Position numbers and translations under genes: made by a program. The notes under the pieces were generated by a model. The model saw only the letters and a program-made list of their open reading frames with translations, was not told the DNA's origin and searched no databases. This document shows, piece after piece, positions 22,221 to 56,670 of a stretch of DNA of 64,000 bases. Positions within the stretch are counted from its first letter, which is position 1; every line of letters starts with the position of its first letter. Source of the DNA: Escherichia coli (GTDB taxonomy: Bacteria; Pseudomonadota; Gammaproteobacteria; Enterobacterales; Enterobacteriaceae); NCBI RefSeq assembly GCF_030013205.1, contig NZ_CP122648.1; one strand, written 5' to 3'.

Positions 22221-23550
22221 TCGTAAATATTTCGGTACCGATGGGATTCGTGGTCGTGTAGGGGATGCGCCGATCACCCCTGATTTTGTGCTTAAGCTGG
22301 GTTGGGCCGCGGGTAAAGTGCTGGCGCGCCACGGCTCCCGTAAGATCATTATTGGTAAAGATACGCGTATTTCTGGCTATATGCTGGAGTCAGCACTGGA
22401 AGCGGGTCTGGCGGCTGCCGGTCTTTCCGCGCTCTTCACTGGCCCGATGCCAACACCGGCCGTGGCTTATCTGACGCGGACTTTCCGCGCAGAGGCTGGG
22501 ATTGTGATATCTGCATCGCATAACCCGTTCTACGATAATGGCATTAAATTTTTCTCTATCGACGGCACCAAACTGCCGGATGCAGTTGAAGAGGCCATCG
22601 AAGCGGAAATGGAAAAAGAGATCAGCTGCGTTGATTCGGCAGAACTGGGTAAAGCCAGCCGTATCGTTGATGCTGCGGGTCGCTATATCGAGTTTTGCAA
22701 AGCCACGTTCCCGAACGAACTTAGCCTCAGTGAACTGAAGATTGTGGTGGATTGTGCAAACGGTGCGACTTATCACATCGCGCCGAACGTGCTGCGTGAA
22801 CTGGGGGCGAACGTTATCGCTATCGGTTGTGAGCCGAACGGTGTAAACATCAATGCCGAAGTGGGGGCTACCGACGTTCGCGCTCTCCAGGCTCGTGTGC
22901 TGGCTGAAAAAGCGGATCTCGGTATTGCCTTCGACGGCGACGGCGATCGCGTGATTATGGTTGACCATGAAGGCAATAAAGTCGATGGCGATCAGATCAT
23001 GTATATCATCGCGCGTGAAGGTCTTCGTCAGGGCCAGCTGCGTGGTGGCGCTGTGGGTACATTGATGAGCAACATGGGGCTTGAACTGGCGCTGAAACAG
23101 TTAGGAATTCCATTTGCGCGTGCGAAAGTGGGTGACCGCTACGTACTGGAAAAAATGCAGGAGAAAGGCTGGCGTATCGGTGCAGAGAATTCCGGTCATG
23201 TGATCCTGCTGGATAAAACCACTACCGGTGACGGCATCGTTGCTGGCTTGCAGGTGCTGGCGGCGATGGCGCGTAACCATATGAGCCTGCACGATCTTTG
23301 CAGCGGCATGAAAATGTTCCCGCAGATTCTTGTTAACGTGCGTTACACCGCAGGTAGCGGCGATCCGCTGGAGCATGAATCAGTCAAAGCTGTGACCGCA
23401 GAAGTTGAAGCGGCGCTGGGTAGCCGTGGACGTGTGCTGTTGCGTAAATCCGGCACCGAACCGTTAATTCGCGTGATGGTGGAAGGTGAAGACGAAGCGC
23501 AGGTGACTGAATTTGCACACCGCATCGCTGATGCAGTAAAAGCCGTTTAA
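22213..23550 (+). CDS. glmM: Phosphoglucosamine mutase
   Basis: 445 aa; active-site SASHNP; 8-bp overlap with folP. Confidence 0.95.
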
Positions 23551-23777
23551 AGCGTTATATAGCTGGCTAAAAAGGCGGCGATTGTCGCCTTTTTTCTCAG
23601 CGAACACATCGGTTTTGCTGTTTTTTTCCGCAGTTGATACAATGCGATAAAATTGCCCTTGCGAAGGTCATTCGCTTTGGTTAGTATTCACACCCGCTTC
23701 AGTGGGAAAGATTAAAAATTCCCGCTTTATTGGTTGAAGCATTGGTACGCGGCAACTCCGCAAGGAACAGGTTGATT

Positions 23778-24110
23778 ATGTACGAAGCTCTTTTAGTAGT
23801 TTTCCTTATTGTGGCAATTGGCCTTGTTGGTCTGATCATGCTGCAGCAAGGTAAAGGCGCTGATATGGGAGCCTCCTTCGGAGCAGGCGCTTCCGCTACG
23901 CTGTTTGGTTCAAGTGGTTCTGGTAACTTCATGACCCGCATGACGGCGCTGCTGGCAACGTTATTCTTCATCATCAGTCTGGTGCTGGGTAACATCAATA
24001 GCAATAAAACCAATAAAGGTAGCGAATGGGAAAACCTGAGTGCGCCGGCGAAAACCGAACAAACTCAGCCAGCTGCTCCGGCTAAGCCGACCAGCGATAT
24101 CCCGAACTAA
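23778..24110 (+). CDS. secG: Protein translocase subunit SecG
   Basis: ORF 23730..24110 trimmed to MYEALLVVFL (110 aa). Confidence 0.9.
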   Translation: MYEALLVVFLIVAIGLVGLIMLQQGKGADMGASFGAGASATLFGSSGSGNFMTRMTALLATLFFIISLVLGNINSNKTNKGSEWENLSAPAKTEQTQPAAPAKPTSDIPN

Positions 24111-24124
24111 AAAGTAGTATCCGT

Positions 24125-24211
24125 GCCGAGGTGGTGGAATTGGTAGACACGCTACCTTGAGGTGGTAGTGCCCAATAGGGCTTACGGGTTCAAGTCCCGT
24201 CCTCGGTACCA
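24125..24211 (+). tRNA. leuU: tRNA-Leu (GAG anticodon), 87 nt
   Basis: GCCGAGGTGGTGGAATTGGTAGACACGCTACCTTGAGGTGGTAG...CCTCGGTACCA with long variable arm and encoded CCA; 14 bp after secG. Confidence 0.95.
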
Positions 24212-24223
24212 AATTCCAGAAAA

Positions 24224-24248
24224 GAGACGCTGAAAAGCGTCTTTTTTC
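24224..24248 (+). terminator. Rho-independent terminator after leuU
   Basis: AGACGCT-GAAA-AGCGTCT hairpin followed by TTTTTT. Confidence 0.8.
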
Positions 24249-24667
24249 GTTTTGGTCCTGGTCTGAGGAATGGTTGTCAGGTATCTGTATCTCGTCCAGT
24301 TGCTTTACTCGTAGCTGGTACTTTGAAACGATGGTATCGGTACGCCTTAGTTATAAACTTTTCCCTTCTGCTGACATAATTGGCACTTTATTGTGTCAAC
24401 TCCAGTTCCGGTACGAATACGGATATGTTTACTTCTCGATAAACCATCCTGCTCCTGTCAGTATAACTACTGATGGCTACGTTCTGCGTAATGTTTAGAG
24501 ACGCATTGATAATGTTATTTAATTACTGAGAACAATGGCCGCATCATTTAAAAAGAAAAAACTAACAGTGTTTCGGTCTGATATGGATCAGAGTTGAAAA
24601 ACATGTCTGATATAAAATTGAACATTGTTGATAATTGTTTATATTGGTTGTGAACTTGGATTTCTGG

Positions 24668-26293
24668 ATGACAGTATTCAACAAATTTGTTAGAAGTTTT
24701 AAATCTCATTGGTTGTTGTATCTTTGTGTTATTGTTTTTGGTATTACGAACTTAGTCGCCTCTTCCGGAGCGCATATGGTTCAGCGATTGCTGTTCTTCG
24801 TTCTGACCATCCTGGTTGTTAAACGTATATCATCCCTTTCGCTTCGCCTGCTTGTTGCCGCACCATTTGTGTTACTGACAGCGGCAGACATGAGTATTAG
24901 CCTCTATTCATGGTGTACCTTTGGTACAACTTTCAATGATGGATTTGCGATTAGCGTGCTGCAGAGTGATCCGGATGAAGTTGTCAAAATGCTGGGGATG
25001 TATATCCCTTATCTATGTGCTTTTGCCTTTTTATCCCTTCTTTTTTTTGCAGTAATAATAAAATATGATGTTTCCTTGCCGACGAAAAAAGTGACAGGAA
25101 TATTATTGCTGATTGTCATTTCGGGCAGTTTATTTTCCGCTTGTCAATTTGCTTATAAAGATGCAAAAAATAAAAAAGCGTTCAGTCCATATATACTAGC
25201 GTCGCGATTTGCTACCTATACACCGTTTTTCAATCTCAATTATTTTGCTTTAGCAGCGAAAGAGCATCAAAGATTACTCTCAATTGCAAACACGGTGCCG
25301 TATTTTCAATTATCAGTCAGGGATACAGGTATTGATACCTACGTGTTGATTGTGGGGGAGTCTGTACGTGTCGACAATATGTCTTTGTATGGATATACAC
25401 GCTCTACGACACCGCAAGTCGAAGCACAAAGAAAACAGATCAAACTGTTTAATCAAGCAATAAGCGGTGCACCTTACACTGCGCTGTCGGTTCCCCTTTC
25501 TTTAACTGCTGATTCTGTTTTGAGTCATGACATTCATAATTACCCGGACAACATTATTAATATGGCTAATCAAGCAGGATTTCAGACTTTCTGGCTAAGC
25601 TCGCAATCCGCTTTTCGGCAGAATGGTACAGCAGTTACCAGTATCGCCATGCGCGCCATGGAAACAGTCTATGTCAGAGGATTTGATGAATTGTTGTTGC
25701 CGCATTTATCGCAAGCGTTAAAGCAAAAGACGCAGCAAAAGAAACTGATTGTTCTTCATTTAAATGGAAGCCATGAACCGGCTTGTAGCGCCTATCCGCA
25801 ATCCAGCGCCGTGTTTCAACCGCAGGACGATCAGGATGCCTGCTATGACAACTCCATTCATTACACAGATAGTTTGCTAGGTCAGATTTTTGAATTATTA
25901 AAAGATCGCCGCGCCTCGGTCATGTATTTTGCCGACCACGGCCTGGAACGTGACCCTACGAAGAAGAACGTCTATTTTCATGGAGGCAGGGAGGCTAGCC
26001 AGCAGGCATATCATGTCCCGATGTTTATCTGGTATAGCCCCGTTCTTGGGGATGGCGTGGATCGCACAACGGAAAACAACATCTTTTCCACAGCTTACAA
26101 TAATTACCTGATTAATGCGTGGATGGGGGTAACAAAGCCGGAACAACCGAAAACGCTGGAGGAAGTGATTGCACACTATAAAGGAGACTCACGGGTTGTG
26201 GATGCAAACCATGATGTTTTCGATTATGTGATGCTCAGAAAGGAGTTTACAGAGGATAAGCAAGGTAACCCCACCCCTGAAGGGCAGGGTTGA
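24668..26293 (+). CDS. yhbX: Sulfatase-family putative phosphoethanolamine transferase
   Basis: ORF 24635..26293 trimmed to MTVFNKF (541 aa); N-terminal TM helices plus sulfatase domain; visibly AT-rich. Confidence 0.8.
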   Translation: MTVFNKFVRSFKSHWLLYLCVIVFGITNLVASSGAHMVQRLLFFVLTILVVKRISSLSLRLLVAAPFVLLTAADMSISLYSWCTFGTTFNDGFAISVLQSDPDEVVKMLGMYIPYLCAFAFLSLLFFAVIIKYDVSLPTKKVTGILLLIVISGSLFSACQFAYKDAKNKKAFSPYILASRFATYTPFFNLNYFALAAKEHQRLLSIANTVPYFQLSVRDTGIDTYVLIVGESVRVDNMSLYGYTRSTTPQVEAQRKQIKLFNQAISGAPYTALSVPLSLTADSVLSHDIHNYPDNIINMANQAGFQTFWLSSQSAFRQNGTAVTSIAMRAMETVYVRGFDELLLPHLSQALKQKTQQKKLIVLHLNGSHEPACSAYPQSSAVFQPQDDQDACYDNSIHYTDSLLGQIFELLKDRRASVMYFADHGLERDPTKKNVYFHGGREASQQAYHVPMFIWYSPVLGDGVDRTTENNIFSTAYNNYLINAWMGVTKPEQPKTLEEVIAHYKGDSRVVDANHDVFDYVMLRKEFTEDKQGNPTPEGQG

Positions 26294-26300
26294 TGTCGAA

Positions 26301-27659
<1,359 letters not shown>

Positions 27660-27695
27660 TTAATTAACTGATGATGAGCCTGGATTTCCGCTCTC

Positions 27696-27732
27696 ACTGA
27701 ATTTTTATGCAAAATAAATGAGTTTTCATTTA
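27696..27732. promoter_or_regulatory. Tandem ARG boxes (ArgR operator) upstream of argG
   Basis: CTGAATTTTTATGCA and AATGAGTTTTCATT resemble the ARG-box consensus TGAATwwwwATTCA. Confidence 0.55.
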
Positions 27733-27868
27733 ATCATCTTTTATCGGAGACAGGAAGAGTTTAGTGTGTTTTTTGTAAAATAATGCGCTTAAGGGAGAGC
27801 AGGAGAAGGCAAAAGTATTCAACAAATGAAAGTGAACTGGATATTCATTCACGTGATTAGCAATAAAC

Positions 27869-27899
27869 GTTGACAAAATGTGGCATGGATCACTATAAT
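27869..27899 (+). promoter_or_regulatory. Candidate sigma70 promoter of the metY-rimP-nusA-infB operon
   Basis: TTGACA (27869..27874) and TATAAT (27894..27899) about 95 bp upstream of metY. Confidence 0.55.
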
Positions 27900-27991
27900 G
27901 CCTGCAGATTTTACGTCCCGTCTCGGTACACCAAATCCCAGCAGTATTTGCATTTTTTACCCAAAACGAGTAGAATTTGCCACGTTTCAGG

Positions 27992-28068
<77 letters not shown>

Positions 28069-28182
28069 CTTTAGTCCTTTTTCAAATATACTGTGAAGAC
28101 TTCGGCCTTCGTAGTGGGATTTGAAAAAATCCTTCTGGAAAGTGCTCCAGACCGCAGTTGCGGTTATAGGGTTCAGTTATAT

Positions 28183-28208
28183 AAAGCCCCGATTTATCGG
28201 GGTTTTTT
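28183..28208 (+). terminator. Hairpin terminator/attenuator between metY and rimP
   Basis: AAAGCCCCGATTTATCGGGGTTTTTT. Confidence 0.7.
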
Positions 28209-28267
28209 GTTATCTGACTACAGAATAACTGGGCTTTAGGCCCTTTTTTTATGTCTTGGGGGTGGGC

Positions 28268-28720
28268 TTGTCCACATTAGAGCAAAAATTAACAGAGATG
28301 ATTACTGCGCCAGTTGAGGCCCTGGGTTTTGAACTGGTTGGCATCGAATTTATTCGCGGTCGCACATCCACACTGCGCATCTATATTGATAGTGAAGATG
28401 GCATCAATGTTGATGATTGTGCTGATGTGAGCCACCAGGTAAGTGCTGTGCTGGATGTTGAAGATCCCATCACCGTTGCTTATAACCTGGAAGTCTCCTC
28501 ACCGGGTCTCGATCGCCCACTGTTCACGGCTGAACACTACGCCCGTTTCGTCGGAGAAGAGGTGACTCTGGTTCTCCGCATGGCGGTACAAAACCGTCGT
28601 AAATGGCAGGGCGTTATCAAAGCGGTAGACGGTGAAATGATCACAGTTACCGTCGAAGGTAAAGATGAAGTGTTCGCGCTGAGTAATATCCAGAAGGCGA
28701 ACCTGGTTCCCCACTTTTAA
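28268..28720 (+). CDS. rimP: Ribosome maturation factor RimP
   Basis: 150 aa protein [10 protein letters not shown]...; the start fitting the known length is a TTG codon at 28268 (ORF track begins at an upstream ATG, 28256). Confidence 0.85.
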
Positions 28721-41672: not shown

Positions 41673-41680
41673 TCAGCGGT

Positions 41681-43058
<1,378 letters not shown>

Positions 43059-43069
43059 GTTAAAACACA

Positions 43070-55878: not shown

Positions 55879-56670
55879 TTACAAAATGCCGAATGCAGAA
55901 CAAACAATAGAAAGAACAAACGTCACGCCGATTAACAGCACCGGATGCGCTTTTTTCACCCGCAGGAAGTAATACATCAGCAGGGTGTAGGCCATCGGTA
56001 AAATATTCGGGAAGACTTTATCGAAGAAATCCTGCTGCAGCGCGACGCTGTGGGTACTGTCGATGGCAAACGATGTCACCACGTTAATATGCACATACGA
56101 AGCGATCAGCCCGCCGATTACCGTGATCCCGAGGATGGTTGCCGAACGAGCAATCATCTGCGAGTTCTCTCGCACTTTATCGATCGCCTTCACGCCGACT
56201 GAATAACCGACGTGGGTCCAGCCGACGCGCAGGAAGAAGATAAGCAGGTAAACGGCGAAAAATAGAATCGGCCCCAGCAAGTTTCCCTGGCTGGCAAATG
56301 ATGAGCAAATTCCCGCCATAATCGGCAATAAGGTAAACCAGAAAATCGCATCGCCAATCCCGGCGATTGGGCCAAACAGTGCCACTTTGAGGCCTTTAAT
56401 GGTGTCGCGGTTTTCTCCTTTTTCTTCCATCGAAATTAATAACCCTATCAGGAATCCGACCAGATTCGGGTGGGTATTAATAAATTCGAGGTTATCTTTC
56501 ATCGCCGCGCTTAGGCCCGGTTTGTCGTCCTTATAAATCTTTTTCAGGCTCGGCAACATCGCCCAGGTAAAACCGCCCGCCTGCATCCTTTCGTAGTTAA
56601 AGCTCGCTTGCAGCAGTGACGAACGAAAGCCCAGACGGGTGATATCTTTTTTACTGATTTCAGATCCCAT
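55879..56670 (-). CDS. agaD: PTS galactosamine-specific IID component
   Basis: ORF 55879..56817 trimmed to MGSEISKKDITRL (263 aa). Confidence 0.85.
   Translation of the reverse strand: MGSEISKKDITRLGFRSSLLQASFNYERMQAGGFTWAMLPSLKKIYKDDKPGLSAAMKDNLEFINTHPNLVGFLIGLLISMEEKGENRDTIKGLKVALFGPIAGIGDAIFWFTLLPIMAGICSSFASQGNLLGPILFFAVYLLIFFLRVGWTHVGYSVGVKAIDKVRENSQMIARSATILGITVIGGLIASYVHINVVTSFAIDSTHSVALQQDFFDKVFPNILPMAYTLLMYYFLRVKKAHPVLLIGVTFVLSIVCSAFGIL

Follow-up and report, generated by a model that had tools for sequence, protein, structure and literature searches.

yhbX lies in a small, probably acquired islet between leuU and argG in Escherichia coli

Analysis of a 64,000-nucleotide stretch of Escherichia coli DNA (contig NZ_CP122648.1), hereafter the window, identified a compositionally foreign segment between the tRNA gene leuU and argG. 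We put the probability at roughly 80% that this segment, which runs from 24254 to ~26298 and consists of a 414-bp leader and yhbX, is a small acquired islet that replaced an older XRE-family gene without the use of a tRNA integrase. The original prediction had been that yhbX is an old, horizontally acquired cargo gene, possibly inserted via the 3′ end of the neighboring tRNA gene. Composition, distribution, and a divergence unlike that of the flanking genes all argue for the acquisition; the proposed route through the tRNA 3′ end did not hold up, since there is no integrase, no repeat of the tRNA end, and a junction that lies past the leuU terminator. The features of the locus are as follows.

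23778 to 24110, plus strand: secG, conserved core gene, left flank
24125 to 24211, plus strand: leuU, tRNA-Leu(GAG) (ARAGORN; Rfam RF00005, 52.8 bits)
24219 to 24253, plus strand: intrinsic terminator of leuU, a hairpin (24219-24248) with a T-rich tail (terminator scan)
24254 to 24667, plus strand: AT-rich non-coding 5′ part of the putatively acquired segment, 414 bp, 38.0% GC
24607 to 24645, plus strand: two overlapping sigma-70-like promoter matches, candidates, 23-60 nt before the yhbX start codon
24668 to 26293, plus strand: yhbX, RefSeq-style CDS of 541 amino acids
26264 to 26300, plus strand: 3′ end of the putatively acquired segment, with a C-terminal extension, a GC-rich inverted repeat, and a 7-bp spacer
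26301 to 27644, minus strand: argG, core gene, right flank, convergent with yhbX

Within the leuU-argG interval yhbX is the sole gene, and its stop codon lies 7 bp from argG. The expectation that yhbX is more AT-rich than its flanks was borne out, and the gene contains the A/T run aaaaaataaaaaagcg (25165-25180). Its GC content is 42.9%, whereas the remaining 61 genes of the window average 52.5% (sd 2.7), giving z = -3.5; its GC3 is 42.6%, as compared to 55.8% for those genes (z = -2.5). Both values are the lowest of 62. GC1 is the second lowest in the window and GC2 is normal, which indicates that the deviation is not merely an effect of amino acid composition. Codon usage likewise places yhbX outside the normal range, with a synonymous-codon log-likelihood against window usage that is the third lowest (z = -2.1). 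GC also climbs along the gene: the first 600 nt stand at 38.5% and the last 426 nt at 47.7%. The AT-rich non-coding gap of about 450 bp that had been noticed after leuU measures 456 bp (24212-24667) at 37.9% GC. No true intergenic spacer in the window exceeds it, as the two longer gaps contain an IS621 element and a broken agaD.

The contents of the leuU-argG slot were compared across genomes. Of 5426 complete genomes labelled E. coli, 5165 have coli-type yhbX in the slot (counted at a query coverage of at least 80%), 237 have a 1.17-kb cassette with an XRE-family gene encoding 317 amino acids in its place, and nine carry a fergusonii-type yhbX, giving allele frequencies of 95.2, 4.4, and 0.2%. 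The slot of Escherichia fergusonii itself holds a yhbX that is 69% identical to the coli-type gene. The XRE gene is found in the same slot and orientation in Escherichia marmotae, some Salmonella enterica, and Citrobacter koseri. Scanning genome contigs with the 3′ half of leuU yielded 23 outgroup loci, none of them from Escherichia, and an empty slot of ~180-210 bp from leuU to argG was seen in S. enterica diarizonae and two Citrobacter species. The comparison with relatives thus came out in favor of acquisition: E. marmotae, the Salmonella and Citrobacter loci examined, and ∼4.4% of complete E. coli genomes all lack yhbX here. On the left flank, secG lies upstream of leuU in every Enterobacterales locus examined and is 98.5-100% identical across the sampled E. 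coli genomes, and leuU shows no sequence difference between E. coli, Salmonella, Citrobacter, and E. fergusonii. Ten loci matched by the exact SecG sequence all had the same gene order and were uninformative. From this distribution, the XRE gene looks like the older occupant of the slot. It should be noted that few lineages inform the timing and direction of the replacement, the Escherichia sample comprising E. coli, E. fergusonii, and E. marmotae. Moreover, some Salmonella lack the XRE gene, which may be a recurrently inserted cassette instead of an ancestral gene.

Some of the assignments require comment. One of the strains that is labelled E. coli and carries fergusonii-type yhbX matches the window evenly at ∼96.5% identity across 50 kb and fergusonii-labelled loci at 99%, a pattern that does not set a local import of the allele apart from a mislabelled species; the nine genomes may represent a fergusonii-like lineage rather than a true polymorphism. 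Two sets of YhbX fragments with 74-85% identity were considered as distinct lineages and rejected. The first (P0158) comes from error-ridden assemblies (L043 and L044), where every gene is broken into fragments and has ∼80-85% identity to the window. The second (P0129) comes from a contig (L045) that is 97.5% identical to yhbX at the nucleotide level and is, judged by this match, ordinary E. coli sequence.

The boundaries of the segment are precise. On the left, the leuU terminator is the last sequence common to all alleles of the slot: the 42 nt past leuU are common to the XRE and fergusonii alleles, the hairpin is also present in Salmonella and Citrobacter, and homology between alleles ends at 24253/24254. 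The left junction is therefore 42 nt downstream of leuU, past its terminator and outside the tRNA. On the right, the ∼70% homology between the coli-type and fergusonii-type alleles runs to "ttgatgt", just before the argG stop, and comparison with E. marmotae places the junction at ∼26298-26300, with a breakpoint within ∼3 nt of that stop. A junction inside the last codons of argG was considered and rejected; ArgG from the XRE allele of E. marmotae also ends in ..NKGQ, which places the right junction just after the stop codon. The coli-type allele alone has a 10-codon C-terminal extension that runs through a short GC-rich inverted repeat, and the alignment suggests that the TAA stop of the fergusonii type was removed in the coli type by a 1-nt difference. 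The argG 3′ hairpin (aaaaaaggccgc...gcggcc) is kept in the XRE allele, in E. marmotae, in Salmonella, and in two of the three Citrobacter loci examined. It is absent from the yhbX allele, and the terminator scan found no terminator-like site on the minus strand from 25900 to 26300. By these sequence criteria, argG in the yhbX allele has lost its own rho-independent terminator. In addition, argG-yhbX is among the overlapping convergent transcript pairs listed in PMC12288877.

The divergence of yhbX does not match that of the flanking genes. Between coli-type and E. fergusonii yhbX, synonymous sites are saturated (pS 0.749) and dN is 0.215, whereas dS of the flanking genes between E. coli and E. 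fergusonii is 0.04-0.26. The XRE gene behaves differently. Between E. coli and E. marmotae it is 91.8% identical at the nucleotide level, alongside 91-93% for core genes and 96.4% for secG, with a dS of 0.24 versus 0.41 for argG; its divergence roughly tracks species. Between genera, its dS is about twice that of argG, which would suit a recurrently inserted cassette. Within E. coli, dS of yhbX is 0.056 and nearly equal to that of the flanks, which implies that the acquisition is old and that its mechanism can no longer be read from the sequence. The part of argG that adjoins the slot is more divergent (93-96%) than the rest of the gene (97-99.5%). The coli-type and fergusonii-type alleles have homologous right junctions, which fits a single old insertion better than two independent ones. 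For a single insertion to agree with the saturated dS, however, alleles would have to have been exchanged with a long-diverged lineage outside the sample.

A second reading of the same data, which we regard as rather unlikely, is that the slot is a cassette-exchange locus in which alleles are kept across Escherichia by frequency-dependent selection, each bringing an advantage such as an altered surface structure that counters phages or cationic peptides. Three alleles with exact common junctions, an allelic divergence far older than the flanks, and the elevated divergence of the adjoining part of argG are consistent with this, as is the XRE gene, whose near species-level divergence between E. 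coli and E. marmotae implies persistence and not re-import. The reading also draws on the role of pEtN (phosphoethanolamine) transferases in modifying envelope charge, known from the family and extended to YhbX by its MCR and EptA matches. However, the allele frequencies are strongly skewed, the XRE protein matches only HTH in PADLOC and PHROGs and has no defence-family match beyond it, and the nine genomes with the third allele may be a fergusonii-like lineage instead of a true polymorphism. Moreover, neutral persistence with recombination explains the data equally well.

The relatives of YhbX outside the slot bear on a further explanation. The nearest ones outside Escherichia are 41-48% identical (Buttiauxella, Pectobacterium, Mixta, and Microvirgula), and each is found at a different locus and not between leuU and argG. 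The phage collection contained no close relative, with matches at or below 30% identity only. The closest paralog is a YjgX-like pEtN transferase with 64-65% amino acid identity and 43.7-43.9% GC, which shares a similar length, low GC, and conserved motifs with YhbX. It occurs in up to three copies in 453 of the 5426 genomes and is carried on plasmid CP057032.1 (pRHB40-C01_2). In two chromosomal contexts at tRNA-Phe, it directly adjoins a P4-type integrase as the first cargo gene. We take the K-12 yjgX adjoining leuX and intB to belong to the same group. The two genes differ in that the paralog occurs in a minority of genomes beside an integrase or on a plasmid, whereas yhbX is nearly universal in E. 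coli and sits at a single fixed site without mobility genes. The YhbX clade is thus one of low-GC, Escherichia-centred, demonstrably mobile pEtN transferases, and YjgX/YhbX-type members were present in all pheU, pheV, and selC islands analysed in PMC6174562.

This company, together with a segment that is compositionally foreign and begins 43 bp from a tRNA gene, is what recommends the idea that yhbX is the remnant of an integrase-mediated island at the leuU 3′ end and the gap its integrase or att leftover. We consider this improbable. No integrase gene or fragment was found between leuU and argG, and the gap has no Pfam, Rfam, plasmid, or island similarity. A search for the 23-nt 3′ end of leuU with up to three mismatches allowed matched a single place in the 64 kb, and direct repeats at the segment boundaries amount to chance-level short matches. 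The junction follows the leuU terminator instead of falling within the tRNA, and the same left junction is found in the XRE and fergusonii alleles. Finally, the transcription directions are opposite: that of the island paralog points to the tRNA and integrase, and that of yhbX leads away from leuU. Slightly less probable still is that yhbX is ancestral here, with losses in Salmonella, Citrobacter, E. marmotae, and some E. coli, its AT-richness being functional: the near universality, species-level diversity, and purifying selection of yhbX in E. coli, the yhbX in the E. fergusonii slot, and the tendency of membrane proteins to be AT-richer would suit it, but the deviation is greatest at synonymous third positions with GC2 normal, no relative above 48% identity is found outside Escherichia and the distant ones are at other loci, outgroups have either an empty slot or a syntenic XRE gene that diverges in step with the species, and dS between the two yhbX types is saturated beside flanks at or below 0.26. 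The functional AT-richness of that account would be that of a membrane protein or of regulation by nucleoid proteins.

Returning to the acquired islet, the events can be pictured as follows. The segment, which fits exactly into the space from the leuU terminator to the argG stop codon, would have replaced the 317-amino-acid XRE gene together with the argG terminator, most likely in one illegitimate-recombination event, and would then have spread by homologous recombination in the flanking core genes. Among Escherichia genomes the slot now holds coli-type yhbX, the XRE gene, or the fergusonii-type yhbX with its 69% identity. The islet resembles the small strain-variable islets of core-gene spacers, which are hot spots of replacement or insertion that lack mobility genes, in its foreign composition, precise junctions, and contents that vary among strains and species. 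It differs in lying directly after a tRNA terminator without the integrase and att features of tRNA islands, and in that its alleles include two versions of one gene with saturated synonymous sites.

The non-coding leader (24254-24667) probably holds the promoter and 5′ UTR of yhbX. An RNA polymerase holoenzyme site was located in the yhbX-leuU spacer by genomic-SELEX (PMC5493296). The two promoter matches upstream of yhbX should be read with the scan as a whole, in which the number of promoter matches in the region equals that expected by chance, promoter and terminator counts are both at chance level, and the leuU terminator is the only convincing site. An Rfam search of 23400-28400 at E ≤ 1 matched nothing in the gap, its hits being confined to the two tRNAs and the rimP leader, and the RNA fold z-score of the gap is -1.58. 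Within E. coli, the gap is a single-copy sequence with 96.9-100% conservation, and no homolog was detected in the fergusonii allele, the plasmid paralog, or the plasmid collection. A 74-amino-acid ORF within it (24274-24498) was considered as a gene and rejected, having no Pfam match and nine amino acid replacements among 11 sampled sequences; its translations are identical beyond residue 44, and the variable gap sites 24453 and 24468 fall inside the ORF.

The product of yhbX is recognizable as a member of the pEtN transferase family. Its catalytic domain matches the sulfatase-type Pfam PF00884 over residues 224-467 (E = 4.5e-56), and among solved structures YhbX matches EptC (5zzu, E = 7e-24) and, over residues 43-460, full-length Neisseria meningitidis EptA (5fgn, E = 4e-22). 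The N-terminal hydrophobic domain has five hydrophobic segments (∼residues 16-162) and no separate Pfam match. YhbX therefore shares the arrangement of a membrane domain and a periplasmic sulfatase-type domain with EptA/PmrC, EptB, EptC/CptA, OpgE, and MCR-1 to MCR-13. Every aligned EptA/MCR catalytic residue is kept, and the motifs GES (E231), PYT (T271), GSH (H369), DH (D423, H424), and YH (H449) align with N. meningitidis EptA and EptC; we presume that these motifs have the catalytic roles of their counterparts in the EptA and MCR-1 structures. YhbX is nevertheless only ∼25-33% identical to characterised enzymes of the EptA/EptB/EptC/MCR type, and its clade is small and separate from them (120 clusters at 50% identity, E ≤ 1e-30). 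YhbX does not fall into a characterised equivalog (EptA, EptB, CptA/EptC, or MCR); all NCBIfam scores, given here without regard to that order, are far under the cut-offs (156.9/500, 142.8/404, 123.8/561, and 103.9/493 bits). By sequence comparison, YhbX belongs to a distinct, uncharacterised subfamily. A 2014 paper counts five pEtN transferase paralogs in E. coli K-12 (YbiP, YhbX, CptA, EptA, and EptB) and reports that the function of YhbX and YbiP had not been established (PMC4013655).

All 12 sampled E. coli sequences contain an intact yhbX, and a dN/dS of 0.13 among the sampled sequences points to purifying selection. Taken together with the domains and retained residues, this suggests that YhbX is probably an active inner-membrane phosphoethanolamine transferase. 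In the predicted reaction, a Zn-activated T271 in the periplasmic domain would take pEtN from phosphatidylethanolamine, and the group would then be placed on an envelope glycolipid or glycan. The best hint, although a weak one, points to the LPS core as the putative acceptor, because the 48%-identical Pectobacterium homolog sits within a waa core-biosynthesis cluster, where its neighbors are a WaaP/Kdo-kinase-family gene and a GT8 gene. The pEtN transferases are modifiers of envelope charge, and the family relatives EptA and MCR mediate polymyxin resistance.

The leuU-yhbX and argG-yhbX spacers serve as "neutral" engineering sites in the literature. In the yhbX allele, argG lacks a terminator of its own and reads into yhbX in the antisense direction, and the leuU-argG locus differs in ∼5% of complete E. 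coli genomes. Both yhbX and this type of feature are already known, and as such the segment is a routine small acquired islet. It is doubtful that leuU-argG is a long-lived, trans-species cassette-exchange locus under selection with YhbX/YjgX as a mobile surface-pEtN module; if this were true, the module, perhaps acting on the LPS core, would alter susceptibility to phages or cationic peptides. More immediately, the lineage-specific acquisition of yhbX, its membership in a mobile clade, and the presence of a homolog in an LPS-core cluster provide a frame for the search for the acceptor of YhbX.

The window is a segment of the E. coli chromosome running from rpoN to the aga genes and is 99.7-99.9% identical to strain CFSAN018748. 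The genes surrounding yhbX are arranged as follows.

23778-24110, plus strand, secG
24125-24211, plus strand, leuU, tRNA-Leu(GAG)
24219-24248, hairpin of the leuU terminator, with a T-rich tail to 24253
24668-26293, plus strand, yhbX, 541 aa
26301-27644, minus strand, argG, convergent with yhbX

The leuU-yhbX gap is 456 bp in all, non-coding from the leuU terminator to yhbX, and 7 bp separate the stops of yhbX and argG. The original prediction was right about these coordinates, the gap length and an A/T run (25165-25180), and its description of yhbX as AT-rich was borne out by GC and codon-usage profiling. Among the 62 intact window genes, yhbX has the lowest GC content (42.9%; mean 52.5%, sd 2.7, z = -3.5) and the lowest GC3 (42.6% versus a mean of 55.8%), the second lowest GC1, a normal GC2, and the third worst synonymous-codon fit to window usage. 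The signal thus comes from synonymous sites rather than from membrane-protein composition. GC climbs along the gene from 38.5% to 47.7%, and no other genuine intergenic spacer in the window is as long as the gap preceding it (37.9% GC). Beyond argG, metY, a tRNA-Met(CAT) gene (27992-28068), and the rimP leader (28150-28250; Rfam RF01770, 102 bits) are both expected upstream of rimP-nusA-infB.

A census of 5426 complete E. coli genomes revealed that the leuU-argG interval is multi-allelic. The coli-type segment is present at ≥95% identity in 5165 genomes, while 237 carry a 1.17-kb AT-rich cassette with an opposite-strand gene for a 317-aa XRE-family helix-turn-helix protein and with a rho-independent argG terminator. 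The third allele, a fergusonii-type yhbX, occurs in nine genomes labelled E. coli (comparison loci L058/L059, NZ_CP098223.1; L052; L060). Over 50 kb, one of these is ~96.5% identical to the window, and over 13 kb it matches fergusonii-labelled loci at 99% identity, which could mean a deep lineage, a very large import or a wrong species label. Between the two yhbX-allele backgrounds, the 5' part of argG is 97-99.5% identical and the 576 nt at its 3' end, by the slot, are 93-96% identical (26301-26876 versus L058 7913-8488), a divergence gradient that rises towards the polymorphic slot. All alleles share 42 nt 3' of leuU, terminator included, and diverge from 24253/24254. Comparison with E. marmotae places the right junction within ~3 nt of the argG stop, and the idea that the acquired segment (24254 to ~26298) rewrote the last argG codons was rejected on this basis.

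Comparison of the slot across Enterobacteriaceae showed that yhbX is not at this position in the E. marmotae, Salmonella and Citrobacter loci examined. The leuU-argG spacer is only ~180-210 bp in S. enterica subsp. diarizonae, C. amalonaticus and Citrobacter sp. MGH106, all of which keep the argG terminator; the first two also have REP-like repeats in the spacer. In Edwardsiella, Hafnia, Tenebrionibacter and Phaseolibacter, rimP-nusA follows leuU directly, without argG. In E. marmotae, some S. enterica and C. koseri, the slot is filled by the XRE gene, oriented as in the E. coli cassette. The E. coli and E. marmotae copies of this gene are 91.8% identical in nucleotide sequence (core flanks 91-93%, secG 96.4%) with a dS of 0.24 (argG, 0.41); between genera, its dS is ~2x that of argG. 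The XRE gene thus has the profile of a vertically inherited, long-standing occupant that was lost repeatedly. The coli-type yhbX segment would then have displaced the XRE gene and the argG terminator together.

The XRE protein (317-319 aa; L001 3187-4140, L046 1904-2857, L047 5001-5960 and L049 5001-5960, each in the coordinates of its own locus) belongs to a widespread uncharacterised family, with relatives at 52-57% identity in Pseudomonas, Photorhabdus, Serratia and Acinetobacter, among others. The match to a known domain (HTH) is confined to its first ~45 residues; nothing in Pfam, PADLOC or PHROG matches the C-terminal ~270 residues. The 3' side of leuU is a synteny breakpoint across Enterobacterales. 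At this position Intestinirhabdus alba has a chaperone-usher fimbrial operon and a C39-peptidase ABC exporter (L027 1904-10792), and Rosenbergiella nectarea has arnT/arnD/arnA/arnC-like lipid A modification genes (L019 7153-13233). Between glmM and secG, 227 bp apart in E. coli, an insert of ~3.9 kb is present in Citrobacter sp. MGH106 (L026 4737-8615) and Shimwellia pseudoproteus (L011 6763-10666). The E. marmotae leuU (L046 2923-3009, a Logan contig) is 89.7% identical to that of E. coli, with T-arm and acceptor-region changes that may be genuine or stem from an assembly error; it is nonetheless assigned as tRNA-Leu(GAG) by ARAGORN, and the Salmonella and Citrobacter leuU genes are 100% identical to E. 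coli leuU.

A search of 1.8 billion cluster representatives showed that the YhbX clade is small (120 clusters at E ≤ 1e-30). Outside Escherichia, identity to the nearest relatives, in Buttiauxella, Pectobacterium sp. B1J-3, Mixta gaviniae and the betaproteobacterium Microvirgula, is only 41-48%, and the three examined each lie at a different locus. Genomes labelled E. fergusonii have a 531-aa yhbX in the same slot, sharing 69% aa and 70.8% nt identity with the coli type. Synonymous sites between the two are saturated (pS 0.749) versus a flank dS of 0.04-0.26, and the genes flanking the fergusonii type are 94.6-99% identical to E. coli. No homology could be detected between the 273-bp fergusonii-type leader and the E. 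coli gap. Homology does exist at the right junction, at ~70% identity through a GC-rich inverted repeat to the argG stop, and the alignment suggests that a 1-nt difference extends the E. coli ORF by 10 codons. One possibility for a shared junction yet saturated dS is exchange with an unsampled, long-diverged lineage.

The closest paralog, YjgX-like, is 64-65% identical to YhbX (aa) with 43.7-43.9% GC, and at ≥80% query coverage it is found in 453 of the 5426 E. coli genomes, in up to three copies. It is present on plasmid pRHB40-C01_2. On the chromosome it is the first cargo gene by a P4-type integrase at tRNA-Phe, on the dsbD/cutA side in one context and on the yqgA/speC side in another, and a truncated copy lies in an integrase island near glnH/dps (loci for all of these: L055 8001-11237; L056/L057 8001-11237; L051 438-2099; L003 4101-6361). 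YjgX/YhbX-type genes were reported in every pheU/pheV/selC island analysed (PMC6174562). On this evidence, the YhbX/YjgX clade is low in GC, centred on Escherichia and demonstrably mobile.

Taken together, the compositional outlier, the differing slot content in relatives and the divergence mismatched to the flanks support the proposal that yhbX was horizontally acquired. The acquisition is old, as within-E. coli dS is 0.056 for yhbX versus 0.078-0.12 for its flanks. The further suggestion that the tRNA 3' end served as the integration site is not supported: the slot contains no integrase gene, no second leuU 3' end occurs within 64 kb even allowing 3 mismatches, no boundary repeats were found around the segment, and its left junction falls after the leuU terminator, outside the tRNA. 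In addition, yhbX points away from the tRNA, whereas the YjgX-like paralog in true tRNA-Phe islands is oriented oppositely. We infer, as the most economical account, that one illegitimate recombination between the two terminators could have installed the segment, which may later have spread by homologous recombination through the conserved flanking sequence.

Neither an RNA-family match nor a credible ORF was found in the 414-bp leader, its folding is unremarkable (z = -1.58), and promoter matches near the yhbX start codon are at chance level only. Most simply, the leader is a promoter and 5' UTR that arrived with yhbX. Since the insertion took out the argG terminator, argG transcripts probably run on into antisense yhbX, consistent with the inclusion of argG-yhbX among overlapping convergent pairs (PMC12288877).

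Pfam identifies a sulfatase-type domain in YhbX (E = 4.5e-56). The protein begins with five hydrophobic segments in its N-terminal part and can be aligned with solved EptC and full-length N. meningitidis EptA. The metal-binding and nucleophile motifs (E231, T271, H369, D423, H424 and H449) are conserved. The gene is intact in 12 of 12 sampled E. coli sequences, and its dN/dS of 0.13 indicates purifying selection weaker than on glmM and argG (~0.01). YhbX is thus predicted to be an active inner-membrane phosphoethanolamine transferase. Its scores fall far short of all the curated cut-offs for EptA, EptB, CptA and MCR, and the literature found gives it no function. Within a waa LPS-core cluster, the 48%-identical Pectobacterium homolog has a WaaP/Kdo-kinase-family gene on one side and a GT8 glycosyltransferase gene on the other, and may offer a clue to the acceptor, the sole contextual one.

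Elsewhere in the window, mtr and yhbW are separated by an IS110-family (IS621-like) element (41673-43069; 326-aa transposase ORF, 41932-42912); in the near-identical CFSAN018748 it is interrupted by ISEc31, which is absent from the window. The aga cluster appears to be decaying: the reference strain annotation shows two overlapping fragments in the agaI-agaC interval (55879-56659), where agaD is expected, and agaE, at the window end, is a pseudogene in that strain.

Both the yhbX gene and this kind of feature were already known; what the comparison adds, modestly, is the multi-allelic slot and a connection to an island-borne paralog.
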